This document shows, piece after piece, positions 1 through 10,949 of a DNA stretch of 11,419 nucleotides (its first letter is position 1; every line of letters starts with the position of its first letter). The notes under the pieces were generated by a model. The model worked only from the letters and a program-made list of their open reading frames with translations, ran no database searches and was not told the DNA's origin. Source of the stretch: a virus (Duplodnaviria; Heunggongvirae; Uroviricota; Caudoviricetes); the IMG/VR virus record IMGVR_UViG_2648501437_000008; one strand, given 5' to 3'. The translations under genes and the position numbers were made by a program.

Positions 1-253
1 CCTGTGGGCCTGCCGGGCCTGCCGCACCGGTATCTCCCTTTGGACCCTGTGGACCTGCATTTCCCGTCAGACCGGTCTCTCCCCGCTCTCCCCTGTCACC
101 TTTCGGCCCCTGCGGGCCTGCCGGACCAGCATCACCTGCCGGTCCCCGCTCACCGGTTGCCCCGACAGGACCGGTGTCACCACGCTCTCCCTTATCACCC
201 TTCGGCCCCTGAGGACCCGCGGGCCCCGGTTCCCCCTTTGGCCCGGGAGGTCC
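1..253 (-). repeat. Collagen-like Gly-X-Y triplet repeat region inside stf (at least 28 consecutive triplets, continuing past the window edge)
   Basis: Minus-strand translation of 253..2 reads [84 protein letters not shown]. At DNA level this gives short direct repeats such as gggcctgccg gggcctgccg near 8..25. Confidence 0.8.
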
Positions 254-1003
254 CACCACGATGGGGATTCGGTTTACGGCCTCTTCCGCCGCTATCCTGC
301 TTTGTTCCGCTGACTGTGCGCTTTCTGCTGACTCCCGGGCTTTTTCTGCTGCGGTCGTTGCATCCCTGGATGCATTACCGGCTGCACTTTCTGCCGTCTT
401 TCTTGACAATTCAGCTTCTGCTGCACTTTGTGATGACTCACTGGCTTTTTGAGCGGCCGCAGAAGCCGAGGACGAGGACGCATCCTCTGACTGCTTTGCT
501 GAGGCTGCACTTTCTGCCGCCTGCCGGGCTGACTCCGATGCATCCCCTGCTGAAGTGTCAGCATTTGCAGCGCTCGCTTCCGCCTGACTGGCTGATATGC
601 CGGCATTCCTCGCTGACGTCTCCGCCTCTCCGGCATTCTTCTTCGCCTCCTCAGCGTGACGCGCCACCTCTTCCACCATCAGTTCAAAACGGCGCAGTGC
701 CTCCGGCCGGACATCATCCTCCGTCATTGCACCGAGGAAATCATTCAGTGTGCCCGGCTTTGAGTCCTCATACACGGTGATAATCCCGGCATGTGACGGC
801 GGAAATCCCTCCACCAACAGAATGACGCTGTACTGACCGTACTCAACGTCCATGCTGTAACGACCGGCTTCATCCGGATTTTCAGAGGCCACCGTGTTCA
901 CCACCACCGTGCTGCTGGTCCGTCTGGCCTTCAGCTGAATGGTGCAGTTCTCTACCGGTTTTCCTGTGCCGTCTTTCAGTACACCTGAAATCTTTACTGC
1001 CAT
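1..1003 (-). CDS. stf: Side tail fibre protein Stf, N-terminal ~334 codons; the 3' end of the gene lies beyond the window start
   Basis: ATG at 1003..1001 preceded by GGGGTGA Shine-Dalgarno-like motif. Manual translation of the minus strand gives [62 protein letters not shown]..., which matches my recollection of the lambda Stf N-terminus. It continues into an Ala/Ser/Glu-rich low-complexity segment and then uninterrupted Gly-X-Y triplets, open to the window edge. Absent from the ORF track because no stop lies inside the window. Confidence 0.85.
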
Positions 1004-1014
1004 ATTCACCCCAC

Positions 1015-1040
1015 AAAAAAGCCCGCCTGAACCGGCGGGC
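1015..1040 (-). terminator. Rho-independent terminator downstream of lom, between lom and stf
   Basis: Perfect 7-bp GC-rich inverted repeat: gcccgcc (1021..1027), 6-nt loop tgaacc, ggcgggc (1034..1040). On the minus-strand RNA the stem is followed directly by UUUUUU (plus-strand aaaaaa at 1015..1020). The plus-strand side has no U tract after the stem, so it is unidirectional for the minus strand. Confidence 0.75.
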
Positions 1041-1067
1041 TGTCATAACACTGTGTTACCTGGCTAA

Positions 1068-1667
1068 TCAGAATTTATAACCGACACCCACGATGAAACC
1101 GTCAGTGCGCCAGTCGCCACTGCCGGAGCCTTCATAAGCAATATCAACGGCCACGGATTCGGTCGGGTTAAACTGCACGCCAGCTCCCCACGCCAGAGAG
1201 GTGTCGCTGTGGCGACCGTCATCACTTCCGGTCAGCACATCGTGCGTTTTCCCCTTGTTGTCAGTTACGCGAAGATAATCCCCGGAGAAAGTCGACACAC
1301 GGCTGTAAGCCACACCCGCCATCGCATACGCGCTGAACCATTCATTCACGCGCACAGACGGCCCCGCCATTACGCTGAACCAGCGGTTACGCACGGAATC
1401 TTCATGCCAGCGGGTATCGCTGTAACGGGTAAGCTGGCGATTCTTGTCTCCTGCATAGCTGAATGACGTCACCAGCCCCAGCGTGTCCGTAAATTCATAA
1501 CGGTATTTCACGTTAATCCCGTTAAGATTATCGCTACCGGGAGCGTTCGTCCGGGCATGAAGATACCCCGCGCTCAGTGTGGACTGATGTTCAGACGCCC
1601 ATGCAGGCGCACCGGATACGGACAGACAGATGGCTGCGGACAAAATGGCTGCACAAACTTTACGCAT
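1068..1667 (-). CDS. lom: Outer membrane protein Lom (Ail/Lom/OmpX-family beta-barrel), a lysogenic-conversion moron
   Basis: 199-aa ORF with an N-terminal signal peptide ([24 protein letters not shown]) and C-terminus ...[25 protein letters not shown] ending in aromatic Phe, as expected for an outer membrane beta-barrel. Matches my recollection of lambda Lom. ATG at 1667..1665 with GAGAGG Shine-Dalgarno 5 nt upstream. Position immediately downstream of J is syntenic with lambda. Confidence 0.93.
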
Positions 1668-1695
1668 AATTACCTCTCGCTTTTCTGCAATAAAA

Positions 1696-1723
1696 AAGGC
1701 ACCATTCCTGACGCCACTTATAG
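1696..1723 (-). other. Weak hairpin plus U-tract in the J-lom spacer (possible leaky terminator or RNA structure)
   Basis: Minus-strand RNA reads GGCGUC-AGGAAU-GGUGCC-UUUUUUAUU: a 6-bp stem with two G-U wobbles followed by six U. Much weaker than the terminator after lom. Confidence 0.25.
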
Positions 1724-1737
1724 GGGTTATAAAAATT

Positions 1738-4700
1738 TCAACGAATACTGATGCCGGAAGCGGCTTTTTTGGTCACAATCACCGTACAGTCGGTGATATT
1801 ACCTGCCCACTGATTGCCTTTATGGAAAACCTTAAACTCCAGAGTGACGCTACCACCACCACTAGACATATCAATAACCGCACTGTAACTACCGGGAATG
1901 GCCCCTTTAGTTTCTCTGGATGCGATTAATACACCGTTTTTGCGAACTTCAAAACCATAACCCGTGTAACTTGTACCTCCCGGGTTATTACCACTTCCCG
2001 GATAGCTATACGCTATTCCGTTAAAGATAATGGGCGGAATAATGATTTGACGGTCAAAGTTATGATCATCACTGATGGTGACTGTAACCGTCCCGTTTGG
2101 TGTTTCCGTGTTACCCCACGTACCAGCCTGTTTCGGAAATGATTTGGATACAGCTTTAACGAAATCACCTCTGACCTGAGTCGCCTCCAGCATGCCCTTA
2201 ATCGTACAGTTTTCATTTACCGTGACATTGTTGAGCGTCCCGGCGTTCGCATTCACACTGCCACTGATATCCGCATTTTTAGCAGTCAGCTTTCCGTCTG
2301 ATGTCAGGGAAAATGCCGGTGGATTGCCACCGCTGGTAATGGTGGGGGCCGTCAGGCGCTTCAGGAACACGTCGTTCATGAATATCTGGTTGCCCTGCGC
2401 CACAAACATCGGCGTTTCATTCCCGTTTGCCGGGTCAATAAACGCGATACGGTTAGCGGCAACCAGAAACTGGCTCAGCTTGCCTTCCTCCGTGTCCTCC
2501 ATGCTGAGACCAATACCCGCGACATAATGTTTGCCGTCTTTGGTCTGCTCAATTTTGACGCCCCACATGGCATTCCACTTATCGTTAGCGTCCTTCCACT
2601 CTTTCGAAAACTCCTCCAGTTTGCTGGCGTTATCCTCCGTCAGCTCGACTTTTTCCAGCAGCTCCTTGCCGAGATGGGATTCGGTTATCTTGCCTTTGAA
2701 AAAATCCAGGTAACCTTCCGCATCATCGCTCGCCCGACCGACGGCCTCCACGAATGCCGATTTGCCAACGGTGTTCACACTGCGGATATAAAAGTAATAA
2801 TCATGGCCCGGTTTGATATTGATACTGGCGGCTATCCAGTACAGCCCCGTGCCAAGGTAGCGGGCTGTGGTTTCAACCTGCCTGATATCGGTAATCCGCT
2901 TTTCCGAGAACCAGAACTCAAACTGTACCGTCGGATCATAAACAGCAAGATGCGGCGTCGCAGTTATCTGAAAATAGCCCGGCGTCAGCTCAATAGTGAC
3001 AGGCGCTGCCGGTGCCGCAATCCGGAACGATACCGATGCCGGATCGCCCTGCTGCCCCCACGCATTTACCGCCCGGACTGTCAGCCTGTAACGCCCCAGC
3101 GCCAGTTGCGTGAAGCGGTATGTGGTTTCCGTCGTCCGGGCCGTGCTGACCAGCCGCTCACTGCCGTCATCCGCGGCCACGGTCAGACGAAGCAGAAAAC
3201 TCACCCCCTTCACCACCTTCGGCGTGTCCCAGCGCGCCAGCACCTGATACTCCCCGCTGTCTGCGGTGACTTCGGCAGTCAGGTGCTGCACCGCTGGCGG
3301 CGTGACACCATTCACCGTGCCACTCTGGTCGCCGTCAAAGTGCGCCCCGTTATCCACGATGGCCTCTTTTTCCGGCACATGCTGCACGGCGGTGACAGCA
3401 TACGTGCCGTCGTCGTTCTCACGGACACTCACGCAGCGGAACAGGCGCTGGCGCAACGTCGGCAGCTTCAGCCCCCATACGCTGTATTCAGCAACACCGT
3501 CAGGAACACGGCTCACTTTTACCTTCACGCCGTCGGTGACGGACTGAACCTCCACGCTGACCGGATTGCCACTTCCGTCAACCAGGCTTATCAGCGTGGT
3601 ACCGGAGGATGGCAGCGTGATTTCACGGTCGAGCGTCAGCGTCCGGGTCTGGCTGTTCACCGCCAGCACACGACCACCGGTGCTGATACCGGCATAGTCA
3701 TCATCACAGATTTCAATGACATCGCCCGGCACATGGCGAAGCCCTTCGGCACCCACGCAGAAGTCCACGGTCTGCGTTTCCAGCAGTTCTGTTTTAATCA
3801 GCCACAGCCCGGCGCGGTGCGCCTGCCCCCGGCTGGTACAGCCAAAAGCATCCATCTTCGTGACGTTACGACCGTAACGGACAATGGCCTGCGTATCCTC
3901 AACAAGCTCTGTCGCCGTCTCCCAGCCGTTATCCGGGTCAATCCAGTTCACCTCAACGGCATTATGGCGGTCTTTCAGGGCGCTAAAGCTGTAGCGGAAC
4001 GGCGCGCCATCATCCGGCATCACCACATTACTGCGGTTATAGGTCCACACCTTATCCGACGGCCGGTCCTGCACGAACGTCAGCGTCTGCCCGTTCCATA
4101 CCGGCATACAGCGCATCGCCGAGCAGAAATCACTGAGCACATCCCACGCCTTGCGCTGTGTGGTCAGGTACGCATTACAGGTGATGCGCGGCTCCGTGCC
4201 GCCAAAGCCGTCCGGCACCGACTGGTCGCAGTACTGGCCGATGACATACAGCGCCCATTTATCCACATCCGCCGCACCAAGACGTTTCCCCATGCCGTAG
4301 CGCGGGTGGGTCAGCATATCCCACAGACACCAGGCCATGTTGTCGCTGTACGCTGGCTTAAACGTTCCGTCCCAGATACCGCTGTATTGCCGCGTCTGCG
4401 GGTCATAGTTCGACGGCACCTGCAGAATGCGCCCGCGAAGATGATAATTACGGCTCACCTGCTGGCTGCCGAACTGCTCAGAGTCCACCTGCACGCCGAC
4501 CAGTGCCGTGTTCGGGTAGCACTGTTTCACATCGATGATTTCGGTATACGAGGACCAGATTGTTTTGTTCTGCAGCTGGTCTGTGGTGCTGTCCGGCGTC
4601 ATCCTGCGCATCCTGATACTGAACGGTCGCGGCGGCAGCTTATCCACCACCACCGAGGCCAGATACTGTGAGGTGGTTTTGCCCTTAATGGTGATGTCTT

Positions 4701-5151
4701 TTTCCGTCACCCAGCCACCATTACGTTGTATCTGAACCAGCAGGCGAACTTCCGACGGATTCCGGTCCCCCTTTGAAGTGGTTTCCACCAGTGCCTGCAC
4801 ACCGAAGGTCAGGCGCAGACGGTCGATGTTTGCCGACGTGATGGTCCGGGTGAGCGGATTGTCATATTTTAATTCTGCACCGATAACGGTTTCTGAACCG
4901 GAGGATTCAAATCCCTCCGGCGGTGTCTGCTCCTGCTCACCTGCCCGGAACACCACCGTGACACCGGAGATATTGGTATTCCCCTCACTGTCCAGCACTG
5001 GCGTACTGTTCAGCAGCACACTTTTTAATCCATCCACCGGACCTTCAATCGGCCCTTCACTGATGGCGTCTATCACGCTCAGCAGCTGGGATGATTTCAG
5101 GTTGTCCTTCGCTTCGCGCGGGGTATGCCCCTTACTGCTGCCTTTACCCAT
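1738..5151 (-). CDS. J: Tail tip / host specificity protein J (central tail fibre), about 1137 aa
   Basis: Translation from ATG 5151..5149 ([20 protein letters not shown]...) matches the lambda J N-terminus and most of its length as I recall it. GGAG Shine-Dalgarno 8 nt upstream. The track start at 5196 is a GTG further upstream and is rejected. Stop TGA at 1740..1738. The C-terminal ~150 aa differ from lambda J. Confidence 0.93.
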
Positions 5152-5173
5152 TCCTCTCGCTCCAGAAACGACA

Positions 5174-5193
5174 AAACCGCCCTGAGGCGGTTT
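5174..5193 (-). other. Perfect 8-bp stem-loop in the I-J intergenic spacer
   Basis: Plus strand aaaccgcc (5174..5181), loop ctga, ggcggttt (5186..5193); an exact inverted repeat. On the minus-strand RNA the stem is followed by UGUCGUUUCU and then the J Shine-Dalgarno and start codon. Confidence 0.4.
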
Positions 5194-5211
5194 CACATAA
5201 AACGTTTTTCA

Positions 5212-5883
5212 TCAACGACCAATCACCACAACCTGACCACCGTCCCCCTCGTCTGCCGTGCTAATCTCCTGAGAGACAACACGTGACCCCACGCGCATTT
5301 CACCGTACAGAACAGGCAGAACATTGCCCTGGGCAACCATGTTATCCAGTGACGAGAAATACGTGTTCTGCTTACCGTTATCCGTTGTTTGTGTGCGGGG
5401 AGTTCTTGGTTTAGGGGCCAGCATCTGCGCCACACCACCGAGCACCATACTGGCACCGAGAGAAAACAGGATGCCGGTCATACCACCGGCCCCAATGGCT
5501 GCCCCCCATGCTGCAAGGGTGGCTCCGGCGGTAAAGAATGATCCGGCAATGGCGGCTGCTCCCAGGACAATCTGGAATACACCACCTGACTTGGCCCCGG
5601 CGACTCTGGGAACAATATGAATCACAGCGCCATCAGGCAGAGTCTCATGTAACTGCGCCGTTAATCCGGACGTGCTGACATCCTGCCCGGCAATCCGTAC
5701 CTGATACCAGCCGTCGCTCAGTTTCTGGCGAAACGACGGAAGCTGCGTGGCCAGCGCCCGGATGGCTTCAGCCCCCGTTTTCACACGAAGGCCGATGCGG
5801 CGGCCAAATCGTTGTAAATCCCCGTAAAGGCAGATGCGTGCCATGCCCGGTGACGCCAGAGGGAGTGTGTGCGTCGCTGCCAT
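5212..5883 (-). CDS. I: Tail assembly protein I (tail tip assembly), 223 aa
   Basis: ATG at 5883..5881. Translation MAATHTLPLASPGMARICLYGDLQRFGRR...GGQVVVIGR is near-identical to lambda gpI as I recall it. Its start overlaps the 3' end of K by 103 nt in a different frame, as in lambda. Confidence 0.93.
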   Translation of the reverse strand: MAATHTLPLASPGMARICLYGDLQRFGRRIGLRVKTGAEAIRALATQLPSFRQKLSDGWYQVRIAGQDVSTSGLTAQLHETLPDGAVIHIVPRVAGAKSGGVFQIVLGAAAIAGSFFTAGATLAAWGAAIGAGGMTGILFSLGASMVLGGVAQMLAPKPRTPRTQTTDNGKQNTYFSSLDNMVAQGNVLPVLYGEMRVGSRVVSQEISTADEGDGGQVVVIGR

Positions 5884-6524
5884 TTGTCGGTATACCTCTC
5901 TCGTTTGCTCAGTTGTTCAGGAATATGGTGCAGCAGCTCGCCGTCACCACAGTAAATAGCGGCATGATTTGGCACCGATGAACCAAAACAGCACAGCAGC
6001 ACATCACCCGGTTGTACTGATGACAACGGCACCTGATACAGCCCTGTGGCCTCCAGATTATCCAGATAGAGATTCTGACCGTGACGCCACCAGTCATCCT
6101 CACGATGAAAATCCGGCATCTCAATCCCCGCCAGATGGTAAGCATCCCGGAACAGCGTGTAACAATCCGTCACCCCGTGCTCAAAGCGCCGCCCGGTGAG
6201 ATGTGGCACACAGCGGAACTTGTGAATCGCCCCCCGGCAGACCAGCCACCACGGCAAATCACTCTGCACCTGCAACCGCCGGTCAGCCTCACTCAGCCAG
6301 GGCAGACCACCGGGGTGGCTGTGGACCAGCGCCACAATCTCACCCTGCATCTCTGCCCGCAGCCAGTCCTCCGGCGACAGCCGGAAATAATCCTCCGGCT
6401 CACCGGAGATATTCACGCAGGGAAAATATCTTTCCCCCTCCGGCGTTCTCACCACGAAGCCGCACGACTCCGCTGGCGCACATCGCCGGGCGTGCGCCAG
6501 AATCGCTGATTCTGTCTCTGTCAT
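5781..6524 (-). CDS. K: Tail tip assembly protein K, with MPN/JAMM motif and NlpC/P60-like C-terminal region, about 247 aa
   Basis: Start chosen at ATG 6524..6522 (MTETESAILAHARRCAPAESCGFVV...), 4 nt after the L stop; the track start at 6566 is an upstream alternative. Intact JAMM motif H-x-H-x7-S-x2-D (HSHPGGLPWLSEAD) at about 6282..6323. Downstream Cys (..GVTDCYTLF..) and His (..NHAAIY..) residues consistent with an NlpC/P60-type fold. Matches lambda gpK. Confidence 0.9.
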   Translation of the reverse strand: MTETESAILAHARRCAPAESCGFVVRTPEGERYFPCVNISGEPEDYFRLSPEDWLRAEMQGEIVALVHSHPGGLPWLSEADRRLQVQSDLPWWLVCRGAIHKFRCVPHLTGRRFEHGVTDCYTLFRDAYHLAGIEMPDFHREDDWWRHGQNLYLDNLEATGLYQVPLSSVQPGDVLLCCFGSSVPNHAAIYCGDGELLHHIPEQLSKRERYTDKWQRRTHSLWRHRAWHASAFTGIYNDLAAASAFV

Positions 6525-6528
6525 GGAT

Positions 6529-7227
6529 TTACTGCGAAAGTTTGTTAATGGAAAGGAAACCGCCAAAGTTGCCGACGTTATTGCGAAACTTACAGCCGCT
6601 CAGGCATTTGCTGCATTTATCCTTCGTGATATCGGACGTCGGCTGGTCATATTCATCCGCGACCGCCGGACCGTGATAACCGCACTCATCACCGCGATAG
6701 GTCCAGGTACAGGTGTTGGCCAGCATGGTGCGCCCCGGAAAAACAGCGCCATCCGTTTCCGTCGGTGTGGACAGCACAAAGCTCGCGCTGACCGAGCTCA
6801 GTTCGCTGCACTGCTCAATGCGCCAGCGGCTGATCACCTCCTGCTCAGGATCGGCGTCACTGTTTCCGTTGACGAAATTCACCGCATCCAGAAAACGGGC
6901 GTAAACCTTACGCCTGACCACCGTTCCGCCGACCAGGCTCTGCAAATCTTCCACCATCCCGGTGACCATGCCGTGCAGATTAGAGACTTTCAGCGTTGGC
7001 CTGGCGCTGGCTCCTTTACCGTTCATCTCAAATCCGCTCCCCTGAATGGGGTACGCCTGATACTGTCGCCCCTGCCAGGTGACCGGCTCACCTTTTTCGT
7101 TCTGCTCATTGCAGAAAAAATAACGTTCTCCACCGACCTCTGTCAGATCGATTTCCCAGAGCACCACGCTGGCCGACTGCTCCGCACGGGTGCATTCATT
7201 CAGTGTTTCCTGCCGGATATCCTGCAT
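6529..7227 (-). CDS. L: Minor tail protein L (tail tip complex), 232 aa
   Basis: Translation MQDIRQETLNECTRAEQSASVVLWEIDLTEVGGERYFFCNEQNEKGEPVTWQGRQYQAYP... matches lambda gpL, including the Cys-rich C-terminus (CSKCLSGCKF). The ATG at 7227..7225 overlaps the M stop codon (ATGA). Confidence 0.93.
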   Translation of the reverse strand: MQDIRQETLNECTRAEQSASVVLWEIDLTEVGGERYFFCNEQNEKGEPVTWQGRQYQAYPIQGSGFEMNGKGASARPTLKVSNLHGMVTGMVEDLQSLVGGTVVRRKVYARFLDAVNFVNGNSDADPEQEVISRWRIEQCSELSSVSASFVLSTPTETDGAVFPGRTMLANTCTWTYRGDECGYHGPAVADEYDQPTSDITKDKCSKCLSGCKFRNNVGNFGGFLSINKLSQ

Positions 7228-7556
7228 CAGTTCACCACCTGTTCAAACTCTGCGCTGAACTCAACACGCAGCATACTGACCCGCGACGACCATTTTGCGC
7301 AGGTCACCTTTATCTGCCGCCACTCATAAGGCGGCGTCCACAGAAAGGCTTTCCAGCCCCCGTGCTCAGCCAGAAACGACTCCAGCGCCGTGGCCTCCCA
7401 ACGGGGAACAGAAAACGTCACGCTGTACGTTTTCAGGTTGGAATTCAGCCCGGCAGGCGCTCGCTGGGAATAGCCATCACCAAAGCGCACCTTTCTTACA
7501 GAAGGGGCCGAAGCCACATCCATACCGGGTTTCACTTTCCAGCGGAAGGTTTTCAT
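7227..7556 (-). CDS. M: Minor tail protein M, 109 aa
   Basis: Translation MKTFRWKVKPGMDVASAPSVRKVRFGDGYSQRAPAGLNSNLKTYSV... is near-identical to lambda gpM as recalled. ATG 7556..7554 overlaps the H stop (ATGA). GGAGG Shine-Dalgarno at 7567..7563, 6 nt upstream. Confidence 0.93.
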   Translation of the reverse strand: MKTFRWKVKPGMDVASAPSVRKVRFGDGYSQRAPAGLNSNLKTYSVTFSVPRWEATALESFLAEHGGWKAFLWTPPYEWRQIKVTCAKWSSRVSMLRVEFSAEFEQVVN

Positions 7557-10500
7557 CGTCCACCTCCGGAGAACAGGCCACCATCACGCATCTGTGTCTG
7601 AATTTCATCACGGGCACCCTTGCGGGCCATGTCATACACCGCCTTCAGAGCAGCCGGACCTATCTGCCCGTTCGTGCCGTCGTTGTTAATCACCACATGG
7701 TTATTCTGCTCAAACATCGCCATACCTGAACCACCAATATTTGCCACAACCCCCAGCTTACCGTCAGCACCACGGCGCAGTGGCAGAATGGCTTCAGGTC
7801 CCGCTTCCCCCATCACACCCGCGCCTTTTGCAAAAGCAAAAAACGTCGGTCGGTTAACCACCGTGCCGCTGTAGCGACTCAAATCAGCCGACTGATAAAC
7901 GCCACCATCAGCATTGGGCGTCACACTGGCAGCGGCAGCACTCCCCCAGCCAAACGCCGAACCAATCCCCTTCACCGCCTGCATCATGGCCATCTGCGCC
8001 ATAATTTTTGCCAGATCGGAAAGGAGTGAGGCGGTAAAAGATTTGAAGTTCAGTTTTCCGGTGGTACAGAAGGTCGCCAGTGCATTACCAGCACTGTTAA
8101 ATGCCGCTGTAAGCATCTGCTCAGCAGTGCCTGCCGCATTATCCGCATCTGCCGTGAAATTCTGAAACGCCCGCATGGCACCGTTTTTCCAGTTACCCTG
8201 AGCAATTTCAAGCTGTTGCCAGTAACGGCGATTCTCATTCAGTTGTCGGTTCAGGCTCTCCGTCAGCGCCTGCTCGGCCTTTCTGTAGTCATCCGTGTTA
8301 TATGTCCCTTTCTGCTCACTATCCCGCCTCAACTGCTCCAGCTGTTGCTGGTATTTCTGGCGAAGACTCAGTTGTACCTGATATCGCTGCCGCTGCTGAT
8401 CACCCATACCCACCGTGGCGATATCCAGGTCATGTTGCTGACGCTGAGCGCGCTCTTCTTCAGCCAGTTGACTGGTCAGCTGAATTGTTTTTTTCTTCAG
8501 ATCGTTGAGTGCCGTCTGTTTCTGAAGCTCCTGCTGTTTTACATCCAGCAGCGTCAGTGCCTGAATCAGTTCATCTTTACTGGCCAGCACACTCTTTTCA
8601 TCTGCCGTCAGTTTTTTCCCGTCCAGGTCGCTGATGCGCTGCTGCAGAGCCAGAAGCTGTTTATGCGCTTCTGTCATCCTTTCCGTGGCAATGCCTGCTG
8701 ACTGTCTGGCAGCAGCAATCTGTCCTTCCACCTGTGCCTGTTGCTGACTGTACTGCAGCAATAACCGGGTGGCCTCATCATTACGGGTTTCGCGTGTTTT
8801 TTTCTTACCGGATGCCAGGGCTTTCTCGTAACGTTCATTTTCACGTTGTATCGCCGCATCCCTGACAGCCTGATCGGCGTACTGCATGGCATTAATACGC
8901 GCAATTTCACGCTGATGTCGTGCTGCTTCCGTTTCATTCATCCGGTTCAGTGCAGCATTTTCAGCATTACGGCGTTTCTGTTGCTCCTGATAATTCCGCT
9001 CTGCCTGCTCTTTTGCATCCTGCAAATCCTTCTGGCGTTTTTTCTCCTGAAGATCGTTAAGACGCTGCTGATCGTATTCAACCTGAGAAGATGATGCCGT
9101 CCAGGGGAGTCTTTTCGCCCGCGACACTTTCTCCTGTAAAGCGGCAATCTGTTCATCCAGCGAGTCTTCACGACCAATATTCATGGCCGCATCCCAGAAA
9201 CGACTCCATAAATCAGACAGATACTTCAGCGTACTGCCCAGCGCATTGAGGTTATTATCAATATCCGCAGTACGCCGACCGGTTTCCTCTGCCAGTGCAG
9301 ACATGGCTATCCGTGCCGCATCACTGGACCGCCCCTGATCCCCAAGGACGCGTATCTGCTCAAGCTGAGTGGCAGTAAGAAAATGCAGCTCATTGTCCAG
9401 AGCCTTCGCGGCATTTACAGGATCATCCTTCAGCCGCTTAAACTGATTTATGGTATCGCTGACCGACTGGCCAACCGATCGCTCCATCTGTGCGGCAGCT
9501 CTCGCCACCATACCGATATCGTTTCCACGAAATGCACCACTCCCCACCACCTGAGCCAGCGCACCGGCTGCAGCATGTTGCGTGATACCATTCCCGGAAA
9601 TAGCACGACTGAGCGTCCACAGCTGCCCGGCAGTGACTCCGGCATAATGCCCCGTCAGTGATAGCTGGCGGTTAAATTCTTCCCCCTCCTTCTGACCGTC
9701 ATACCAGGCTTTACCCAGACCATAGACGGCCGCGGCAATACCGCCAATAACCGCTCCTGGCATCATGCCTTTCGGTGACATCAGTGTGTCTATCCATCCG
9801 GCACGGTTAGCCAGCGTTATCCCGGATCCCCTCAGCGCTCCTAAATTGCCACGGGCCAGTTCACCTATCAGAACGCCTATCTCCTGGCGGGCTGCTGCAC
9901 TTTTCAGACCCAGCGAATGCGTGGCTTTTCCTGCCTGCTCCATTTTGCGGATATACACTTCTGCAGCACTGCTTACCCCTAGCTGGGCTGCCCTGGCACG
10001 AAGCAACTCAGAAGATGAAAGATTCTGGCGGGTTGCCTGCTCTTTAAGCTGACGGATAAACGCCACTTTCTGTCGGGTAGCCTCTTCCTCAGCCTGTGTA
10101 AGAACACGGGTTTTCGCAGTAACCTCAGAAATCAGCGCCAGATAATCCTGCTGGCCAATCCCGCCACTGTTTCTGGCCTGTCGGATCTGCTGCTGAATAC
10201 GCTGTAATTCCTGTAGCCCCGCACTGGCCTGTTTCACACTGTCAATCTGACGATAAAACGCAGCAGCCGCTTTATCCTGAGCCTCCGCCAGAGCCATGGC
10301 CTGCGCCTGTTCCTCGCGCATTTTCTGGCTCAGTGCCTCCATGCGCTGGCGGGTTTTCTCCACCTCGCGGGCCATGCGTTCATGAGCCTGTGCGTTCTTC
10401 TCCACCGTCTGCGCATGGACGGATGCGGCTGTTGCAGCCGAAGAAGCCGCCTGCGTTGTCTGCCTGGCGGCCTGAGTCTGACGCTCCATAAAACGCTGCA

Positions 10501-10627
10501 TACGGGCAGAAGACCGTTCTGCATCGCTGGCTGCACCATTCAGAAGGTTTTTGATACGGGGAATTTCATTTTTAAACTCTGCCGCATCAATCCCCAAATC
10601 AATGACCAGGTTGGCTATCTGGTCCAT
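7553..10627 (-). CDS. H: Tail length tape measure protein H, about 1024 aa (longer than lambda gpH)
   Basis: Start assigned to ATG 10627..10625 (MDQIANLVIDLGIDAAEF...) because GGAGG sits 8 nt upstream at 10640..10636. The track start at 10657 is a TTG and is rejected. The C-terminus FEQNNHVVINNDGTNGQIGPAALKAVYDMARKGARDEIQTQMRDGGLFSGGGR matches the lambda gpH C-terminus as recalled. The long Q/E/R/A-rich N-terminal half is predicted coiled coil and diverges from lambda. Confidence 0.88.
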   Translation of the reverse strand: MDQIANLVIDLGIDAAEFKNEIPRIKNLLNGAASDAERSSARMQRFMERQTQAARQTTQAASSAATAASVHAQTVEKNAQAHERMAREVEKTRQRMEALSQKMREEQAQAMALAEAQDKAAAAFYRQIDSVKQASAGLQELQRIQQQIRQARNSGGIGQQDYLALISEVTAKTRVLTQAEEEATRQKVAFIRQLKEQATRQNLSSSELLRARAAQLGVSSAAEVYIRKMEQAGKATHSLGLKSAAARQEIGVLIGELARGNLGALRGSGITLANRAGWIDTLMSPKGMMPGAVIGGIAAAVYGLGKAWYDGQKEGEEFNRQLSLTGHYAGVTAGQLWTLSRAISGNGITQHAAAGALAQVVGSGAFRGNDIGMVARAAAQMERSVGQSVSDTINQFKRLKDDPVNAAKALDNELHFLTATQLEQIRVLGDQGRSSDAARIAMSALAEETGRRTADIDNNLNALGSTLKYLSDLWSRFWDAAMNIGREDSLDEQIAALQEKVSRAKRLPWTASSSQVEYDQQRLNDLQEKKRQKDLQDAKEQAERNYQEQQKRRNAENAALNRMNETEAARHQREIARINAMQYADQAVRDAAIQRENERYEKALASGKKKTRETRNDEATRLLLQYSQQQAQVEGQIAAARQSAGIATERMTEAHKQLLALQQRISDLDGKKLTADEKSVLASKDELIQALTLLDVKQQELQKQTALNDLKKKTIQLTSQLAEEERAQRQQHDLDIATVGMGDQQRQRYQVQLSLRQKYQQQLEQLRRDSEQKGTYNTDDYRKAEQALTESLNRQLNENRRYWQQLEIAQGNWKNGAMRAFQNFTADADNAAGTAEQMLTAAFNSAGNALATFCTTGKLNFKSFTASLLSDLAKIMAQMAMMQAVKGIGSAFGWGSAAAASVTPNADGGVYQSADLSRYSGTVVNRPTFFAFAKGAGVMGEAGPEAILPLRRGADGKLGVVANIGGSGMAMFEQNNHVVINNDGTNGQIGPAALKAVYDMARKGARDEIQTQMRDGGLFSGGGR

Positions 10628-10949
10628 AACGCACACCTCCGGAAATACCTTCCCCAAGATGCATCAGTTCTTCGTCCGTTCGCTCCGGTATCCCGTTCTC
10701 TTCCGGTAAAAGGCTGAAATCAGCCACCGCAGCATCACTGCTGCCGGACACCATTCTCACGATCAATGCCTTCAGCGAGGCAAACTGCGCATCCATCCAC
10801 ACATCACTGAAGCTCTGCATCCGGAAATAATCGCCCCACTCACCAAGCTCAGTGGCCGACATTTCCGACAGCATCCGCCGCCAGTCTGCCCGCCGGAACT
10901 CCCGGGCAAGCCGCATGACAAACTGCATTTCCCGCGTCAGGACTTTTCC
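10599..10949 (-). CDS. T: T-frame portion of the G-T tail assembly chaperone fusion, reached by programmed -1 frameshift from G (no independent start assumed)
   Basis: The ORF in the -1 frame relative to G is open from 10961 to the stop at 10601..10599. It overlaps the last 8 codons of G and overlaps the H start by 27 nt. The frame relationship and position between G and H are exactly as in lambda G/G-T. Translation ...VLTREMQFVMRLAREFRRADWRRMLSEMSATELGEWGDYFR... is consistent with lambda T as recalled. Confidence 0.75.
   Translation of the reverse strand, partial: GKVLTREMQFVMRLAREFRRADWRRMLSEMSATELGEWGDYFRMQSFSDVWMDAQFASLKALIVRMVSGSSDAAVADFSLLPEENGIPERTDEELMHLGEGISGGVRYGPDSQPGH

Follow-up and report, generated by a model that had tools for sequence, protein, structure and literature searches.

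A lambda-like tail operon with a phage 434-type J receptor-binding tip and OmpC as its predicted receptor

Introduction

Phage lambda recognizes its host through the C-terminal receptor-binding domain (RBD) of the tip attachment protein J (gpJ), which is Ig-like and docks by placing four bottom loops, L1 to L4, in the mouth of trimeric LamB; upon binding, the three RBDs spread apart, and a signal running up the fiber opens the tail tip (Ge and Wang, 2024; PMC11101478). The same part of the protein has been described as a 'specificity region' (lambda J residues 960-1132) that recombines independently of the remainder of J and shows gap and entropy peaks at lambda J residues 1012, 1048, 1077, and 1107 (Maddamsetti et al., 2018; PMC6646904).

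Other members of the J family use OmpC. Lambda particles in which the 434 tail fiber gene replaces J bind OmpC, the receptor of 434 (Chatterjee and Rothenberg, 2012; PMC3509688), and the 434 central fiber has been described as OmpC-targeting (PMC12502783). The J proteins of A8 and phi330 are proven OmpC binders (PMC11338833, PMC12502783); for phi330, a long-tailed Stx2a phage, the need for OmpC was shown by Keio knockout and complementation (PMC12502783). Exchanging the J tip alone is enough to send lambda to OmpC, as in the A8 and 1A2 chimeras with a P2-derived side fiber (PMC11338833). Phage 21 is reported to be LamB-native, and one mutation in its J adds OmpC use (PMC11336670). Within this family, very few changes can be enough to decide which receptor is used.

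Here, we analyze a J gene from a lambda-like prophage of the Caudoviricetes (IMG/VR record IMGVR_UViG_2648501437_000008), contained in a stretch of 11,419 nucleotides that we refer to as the window. Its C-terminal part is the tip allele of phage 434, and we predict that it binds OmpC.

Results

The window comprises the distal half of a lambda-like tail operon on the minus strand, in the order M-L-K-I-J-lom-stf (Table 1). By BLASTN, this gene order is collinear with 434, and with lambda as well except for the block 1203-2181. The I, K, L, and M proteins share 94-98% amino acid identity with both phages, whereas Lom matches that of 434 at 94.5% identity and lambda Lom at 45.9%. The N-terminal part of Stf has collagen-like Gly-X-Y repeats and is 94.6% identical to 434 Stf. 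Overall, positions 1-7651, which include M to stf, are collinear with the 434 genome (OL657226) at 94.6% nucleotide identity.

Table 1. Coordinates of the J gene, its receptor-binding tip, and neighboring features in the window.
Feature	Position	Strand	Details
Tape measure gene (H)	7553-10657	minus	
Tail tip genes	5212..7556	minus	I 5212-5883, K 5781-6524, L 6529-7227, M 7227-7556
J (tip attachment / central tail fiber protein)	1738..5151	minus	1137 aa plus stop; single intact ORF
Conserved joint, central straight fiber/RBD	2206..2277	minus	J residues 959-982; divergence from lambda starts here
RBD (Ig_GpJ_C), 434 type	1744..2151	minus	J residues 1001-1136; Pfam PF12421, 88.5 bits
Variable loop 1	2095..2130	minus	residues 1008-1019; aligns with lambda hotspot 1012
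Variable loop 2 hairpin	1969..2007	minus	residues 1049-1061; six residues longer than in lambda; aligns with lambda hotspot 1048
Variable loop 3	1888..1917	minus	residues 1079-1088; aligns with lambda hotspot 1077
Variable loop 4, HKGNQWAGN	1795..1821	minus	residues 1111-1119; shorter than in lambda; aligns with lambda hotspot 1107
Terminator-like hairpin just 3' of J	1698..1715	minus	434 has an annotated terminator at the matching place
lom (Ail/Lom outer membrane protein), 434 type	1068..1667	minus	199 aa; Pfam Ail_Lom, 403 bits
Terminator-like hairpin 3' of lom	1020..1041	minus	matches an annotated 434 terminator
stf, 5' part (side tail fiber Stf)	1..1003	minus	N-terminal 334 aa, runs off the window; Pfam phage_tail_N, Collagen

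The mechanically called ORF of J extends from 1738 to 5196 and begins with GTG; the start equivalent to that of lambda (ATG, MGKGSS) lies at 5151 and yields a full-length protein free of frameshifts and premature stops. All six Pfam gpJ domains (Phage-tail_3, FNIII-A_GpJ, Ig_J, Ig_J_second, Phage_Tail_Tip, and Ig_GpJ_C) score above their curated cut-offs, giving the lambda-type architecture of a hub (Phage-tail_3), FNIII/Ig domains, a tail tip fiber, and a C-terminal Ig RBD, and chain J of PDB 8iyk matches residues 16-1151 of the ORF (E=0). The body of J is of the lambda/434 type, with hub domains, FNIII/Ig domains, and a central straight fiber, and it meets the RBD at the conserved box NADISG...GTLNNVT...NC. 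Relative to J of phage 434, dN/dS amounts to 0.08 for the body and 0.12 for the RBD, values that indicate that purifying selection keeps J, including the RBD. The RBD-wide value of 0.12 gives no gene-wide signal of diversifying selection; the substitutions are too few for a site-wise analysis.

Global alignment with J of lambda (J02459) shows ~97% identity up to residue ~965 and ~35% over the last ~150 residues (1741-2200), where indels occur at four loops. An earlier reading of the sequence alone had described J as close to lambda J for most of its length and divergent over this same segment, and the peptides with which it marked the segment are present as written inside the range. Counted per 50 alignment columns, identities number 44-50 up to column 950 and then 37, 21, 13, and 13/43, with indels; the four indels align with the lambda peaks at residues 1012, 1048, 1077, and 1107. 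Ungapped nucleotide identity to lambda J is 0.91-0.99 up to codon 950, 0.79 over codons 951-1000, and random-like beyond.

While the divergence of the J tip itself was correctly seen, the differing block proved to be larger than that tip. The BLASTN alignment with lambda stops at 2182 (lambda J codon ~990) and restarts at 1202, inside the 3' end of lom. The intervening block of ~1203-2181 comprises the RBD, the intergenic terminator, and most of lom, and BLASTN to lambda finds just one fragment within it (1470-1528; 59 nt, 81%). Judged from these alignments, the fall from ~95% to undetectable DNA similarity inside a single ORF is a mosaic junction and not the product of chance, and the divergence from lambda reflects the replacement of one allele by another rather than decay. 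At the junction, joint positions G13, T14, L15, N16, N17, V18, T19, and C24 are invariant in all aligned RBD alleles, and the joint is likely the left-hand recombination site in RBD swaps. Relative to lambda, the exchanged module consists of the RBD plus lom, and it was most likely gained through homologous recombination, with crossovers in the conserved box on its left side and within the 3' end of lom on its right.

Compared with J of phage 434 (UMO75286.1), 1095 of 1137 residues are identical (96.3%), the proteins are equal in length, and the alignment contains zero gaps. Identity over residues 959-1137 is 93.3% (167/179), again gapless and with equal lengths of all four loops; a value below ~60% would have voided an assignment to this allele. 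At the level of sequence, it is essentially certain that the divergent C-terminus is the classical 434 ('h434') host-range allele. A comparison with J tips of known receptor, one of the checks proposed in the sequence-only reading, places 434 (OmpC) first with 167/179 identities, followed by phi330 (OmpC) with 90/182 and lambda (LamB) with 77/185; the high identity of the C-terminal 150 residues to lambda J ~980-1132 that this reading had named as contradicting its claim was not found.

The domain at residues 1001-1136 carries the Pfam name 'Tip attachment protein J, C-terminal receptor binding domain'. A second proposed check, structure prediction, gave for the last 179 residues an AlphaFold2 model (23 aligned homologues, mean pLDDT 81) in which the RBD is shown as an Ig-like beta-sandwich with four variable loops. 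Its best Foldseek matches in the PDB (E ~1e-15) are 8xck and 8xcj, the lambda gpJ RBD in its closed and LamB-bound states, together with 9wca and 9wcb, which are 'A8 gpJ 713' alone and bound to OmpC of E. coli EDL933, respectively. Both the Pfam assignment and the match to solved lambda and A8 domains support the earlier view that receptor binding resides in the last ~150 residues. Loop 1 is two residues longer than in lambda in our alignment and six longer than in phi330, and it also exceeds that of the A8 chimera; the corresponding loop of 434 is a predicted OmpC contact (PMC12502783).

Within the allele, variation is narrowly placed. Among thirteen 434-type sequences, changes after residue 1000 are confined to positions 1004, 1008/1009, 1019, 1049, 1050, 1061, 1096, 1097, 1099, 1109, 1111, and 1115; most of these positions fall in or beside the variable loops, and loop 3 is invariant. 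The window differs from 434 at 1008, 1009, and 1019 in loop 1 and at 1049, 1050, and 1061 in loop 2, where D1050/R1061 and Y1050/S1061 co-vary. Charge-changing differences from 434 in or beside loops are D1049S, D1050Y, R1061S, and R1115W. At position 1115, the window and lambda h434 imm21 both carry W; 434 has R there, and phage 2851 and cdtI have G. The Y1050/S1061 pair was otherwise seen only in one database cluster (P0001, 330 members), with D/R found at these positions in nine other 434-type sequences and D/S in Ayreon and L008. P1096S is absent from every other sequence examined and affects a proline that at least 90% of all aligned J tips share. A scan of the GTDB representative genomes, one per species, for exact matches to a 30-mer across the P1096S codon gave no hit. 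Most hotspot states of the window are common to Ayreon, PhiR26_1, and phi458, phages isolated or propagated on E. coli K-12 whose RBDs are 96-97% identical to that of the window.

To place the host-range determinant, the lambda h434 imm21 hybrid (OM418627) was compared with both parents at informative sites. At 133 sites, the last of them at record position 17619, the hybrid carries the lambda state, and from 17637 to 18444, the end of the compared region, it carries the 434 state at 37/37 sites. The crossover from lambda to 434 thus lies at J codons ~705-711, so that the h434 host range goes with the last ~430 residues of J together with the downstream DNA. Given that the hybrid also has the 434 lom and stf genes, it alone cannot separate J from the side fibers. 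Two of the within-allele hotspots also distinguish the hybrid from the sequenced 434 (D1050N and R1115W), and J of the window differs from that of the hybrid by eleven RBD substitutions, mostly in the variable loops. The primary reference for the 434 receptor is Hantke's 1978 report, which names it protein Ib.

The 434-type tip is widespread. Using the 445-nt stretch without lambda homology (1738-2182) as query and a threshold of at least 80% coverage, we found it in 2092 of 5426 complete E. coli genomes (~39%), with at most 7 copies per genome and a best identity of 98.2%. A tblastn search of 50,697 phage records with the last 152-179 residues of J separated the matches into two bands: 74 records exceed 90% identity, zero lie at 60-90%, and the rest fall at 35-45%. 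The upper band includes the Stx2c phage 2851, O157 Stx1a and Stx2c phages, Stx2a_WGPS6, cdtI, Ayreon, Perceval, phi458, ev099/ev207/ev243/Evi/2B8, and several PhiR phages. Matches in the protein database are annotated as host specificity protein J and come from E. coli, E. albertii, and Shigella. For Ayreon, Perceval, phi458, the PhiR phages, ev099/ev207, 2851, cdtI, and the Stx1a/Stx2c phages, we found no receptor experiments in the literature.

Discussion

We propose that the receptor of this J protein is probably OmpC and not LamB. OmpC is the most likely porin because the RBD aligns with that of 434 along its whole length at 93% identity and without gaps. The sequence-only reading had expected a receptor other than LamB, which agrees with the segment being the allele of 434, whose receptor is OmpC; it had also held that the receptor cannot be named from sequence, a position we do not share, since this same identity leads to OmpC as a prediction. 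Its premise that tip swaps change the receptor is one we retain, as the A8 and 1A2 tips redirect lambda to OmpC (PMC11338833). Phage 21, however, has an RBD 82% identical to that of the OmpC-dependent phi330 and is nonetheless reported as LamB-native, and because of this contrast we regard the OmpC assignment as likely rather than as settled.

By analogy with the lambda-LamB and A8-OmpC complexes, the three RBDs at the fiber tip would put their loops into the extracellular mouth of the trimeric porin, and porin binding would trigger opening of the tail tip, followed by DNA ejection. The few differences from 434, located at within-allele hotspots in or beside the loops, may tune the recognition of OmpC variants.

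In combination, Y1050/S1061 and P1096S could provide a specificity unlike that of classical 434, with restriction to certain OmpC variants or use of another porin, which we consider rather unlikely. In that case, positions 1008/9, 1049/50, 1061, 1096-99, and 1115 would serve to tune a single RBD allele naturally to polymorphic porins. We judge it quite improbable that S1049, Y1050, S1061, S1096, W1115, and QA at 1008-9 have together shifted or narrowed a 434-type RBD so that it accepts certain OmpC variants only, or for example OmpF. The differences from 434 after residue 1000 are mostly at the within-allele hotspots, and the pair Y1050/S1061 is not found in the K-12-propagated phages examined. 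The OmpC-binding chimeras A8 and 1A2 distinguish natural OmpC variants (PMC11338833), and few J mutations are enough to give lambda and phage 21 use of OmpF or OmpC (PMC6646904, PMC11336670). Nevertheless, the loop lengths equal those of 434 with zero indels, W1115 is shared with the laboratory h434 hybrid, and the QA, N, and S states at 1008, 1009, 1019, and 1049 also occur in Ayreon, PhiR26_1, and phi458. The low dN/dS argues in the same direction, with diversifying selection across the RBD not being seen.

That this J still uses LamB although it has diverged from lambda, a situation reported for phage 21, is very unlikely. Phage 21 lends the idea some weight, being described as LamB-native with an RBD that resembles those of A8 and phi330 (82%) and is far from that of lambda. 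However, the RBD of the window is just 46% identical to that of phage 21 and 42% identical to that of lambda (77/185 columns), all four LamB-inserting loops differ from those of lambda in both length and sequence, and the closest characterized relative, at 93%, is 434, an OmpC phage. That J resides in a decaying, non-infectious prophage, its C-terminal divergence having no present functional meaning, seems the most improbable reading of all: E. coli lambdoid prophages are often defective, allele-positive genomes hold 1 to 7 copies, and P1096S is a private change at a nearly invariant proline, but J is full length (1137 aa) with frameshifts and stops absent, dN/dS against 434 is 0.08-0.12, H, M, L, K, I, lom, and the N-terminus of stf are all intact in the window, and the divergence from lambda is due to allele replacement.

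An OmpC-binding 434-type tip predicts an OmpC-dependent host range, and lamB mutants are predicted not to be resistant. The locus is a case of textbook lambdoid mosaicism, in which the receptor-binding tip of J is swapped as a cassette, here along with lom. The allele, its receptor, the cassette-like exchange of J tips, and the structural mechanism are already published, the allele, receptor, and swap mechanism having been known for decades; the feature is ordinary and very common, and it raises no new biological question. Its use lies in annotation and in the choice of natural J tips for retargeting lambda-based delivery particles.

Among the described systems, lambda shares with the window the Ig-like fold, the site of the RBD after the central straight fiber, the conserved N-terminal joint, and the C-terminal KK..GISI tail. 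In contrast, identity between the two RBDs is ~35-42% (77/185 over the 179-residue region), indels are present in all four LamB-inserting loops, and DNA homology is absent; the identity to lambda J ~985-1132 in sequence and in loops L1-L4 that is expected of a LamB-binding RBD was not found. A defense protein that senses J, HepS (PMC13043305), was also considered and set aside, as it concerns the central straight fiber and not the RBD.

The allele of A8, phi330, and phage 21 likewise shares the fold and provides the nearest solved structure by sequence (144.8 bits versus 113-115 for lambda). At 48-50% identity (90/182 to phi330) and with other loop lengths, it is a separate allele; high identity to 9wca or to the C-terminus of phi330 J was not observed, and phage 21 stands at 46%. 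We did not take phi330 as direct evidence for OmpC use by the window: its nearest genome relative, WGPS6, has the allele of the window, but the phi330 RBD is of the A8 type. The OmpC-binding gpJ chimeras that Brodel et al. (2024) engineered were also compared and do not carry the allele of the window, A8 being 48-50% identical and 1A2 a different allele. The latter is a natural J C-terminus that, when grafted onto lambda J, sends lambda particles to OmpC (EDL933 type). Based on its supplementary sequence and the cluster representatives P0057, P0060, and P0061, the 1A2 allele (...MKKATAGITIS) is ~47-50% identical to the window.

Phage 434 is the closest of these systems. The similarity extends beyond J to lom (94.5%), the N-terminus of Stf (94.6%), and terminators at matching places. 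The two J proteins differ at 42 amino acids, 12 of which lie in the last 179 residues and cluster at the loop hotspots. The resemblance does not include the tape measure protein: that of the window is unrelated to lambda H (1034 aa versus 853 aa, 28% identity), and, given that 434 H is annotated as lambda-H-like and located at the lambda H coordinates, it is likewise unrelated to the tape measure of 434.

Mosaicism of the tail genes

The block of the window without DNA homology to lambda reaches past the tip of J, the central tail fibre protein, and continues across most of lom. The encoded Lom protein shares 94.5% identity with its counterpart in phage 434, whereas identity to lambda Lom is limited to 46%. 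The receptor-binding tip of J and lom constitute a single inherited cassette in this lineage. The side tail fibre protein Stf carries collagen-like Gly-X-Y repeats, as does 434 Stf.

Homology to lambda DNA starts only at position 7718, which falls within the last ~165 nt of the tape measure gene (H). The encoded protein is longer than lambda H (1034 vs 853 aa) and shares just 28% identity with it. The 3' end of H therefore contains a second mosaic junction, and the tail of this phage is probably longer than that of lambda. The open reading frame antisense to J most likely represents a shadow ORF arising from codon bias, rather than a gene; lambda J carries a comparable antisense frame of 564 aa.

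Features of the window discussed in the text
Feature	Position	Strand	Detail
Collagen-like Gly-X-Y repeats, Stf residues ~250-334	1-260	(-)	Pfam Collagen; continues beyond window edge
lom and J-lom spacer	1203-1737		Part of block without lambda DNA homology
J residue 1096	1864-1866	(-)	RBD alignment; Ser for Pro of IDMP motif
J residues 1050 and 1061	2002-2004 and 1969-1971	(-)	434-type alignment; flank loop-2 hairpin
ORF antisense to J	2527-4671	(+)	714 aa
Tape measure protein gene	7553-10657	(-)	1034 aa

Variation within the receptor-binding domain

Residues 1050 and 1061 of J are Asp and Arg in nine of the 13 sequences carrying the 434-type receptor-binding domain (RBD; ten counting D/R-type), Asp and Ser in Ayreon and one further sequence (L008), and Tyr and Ser in the window and in the 330-member database cluster P0001. 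These states suggest a cross-strand pair, forming a salt bridge in one case and a neutral pair in the other, albeit on the basis of only one apparent evolutionary event. Ser1096 stands in place of the IDMP-motif proline, a residue kept in at least 90% of all aligned J RBDs and in all other 434-type sequences examined; this substitution may be rare but neutral, may be destabilising, or may stem from an error in sequencing.

The RBDs of phage 21 and phi330 align without gaps at 82% identity, providing a useful natural pair to map the residues that switch between LamB and OmpC use. The native receptor of phage 21 is reported as LamB, and phi330 is reported to require OmpC.

Compared with J of the sequenced phage 434, that of the laboratory hybrid lambda h434 imm21 (OM418627) carries the substitutions D1050N and R1115W. 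Both fall at hotspots, positions in or beside the variable loops that also vary among natural 434-type alleles; even in laboratory stocks, therefore, loop positions of the h434 host-range allele have undergone drift or selection.
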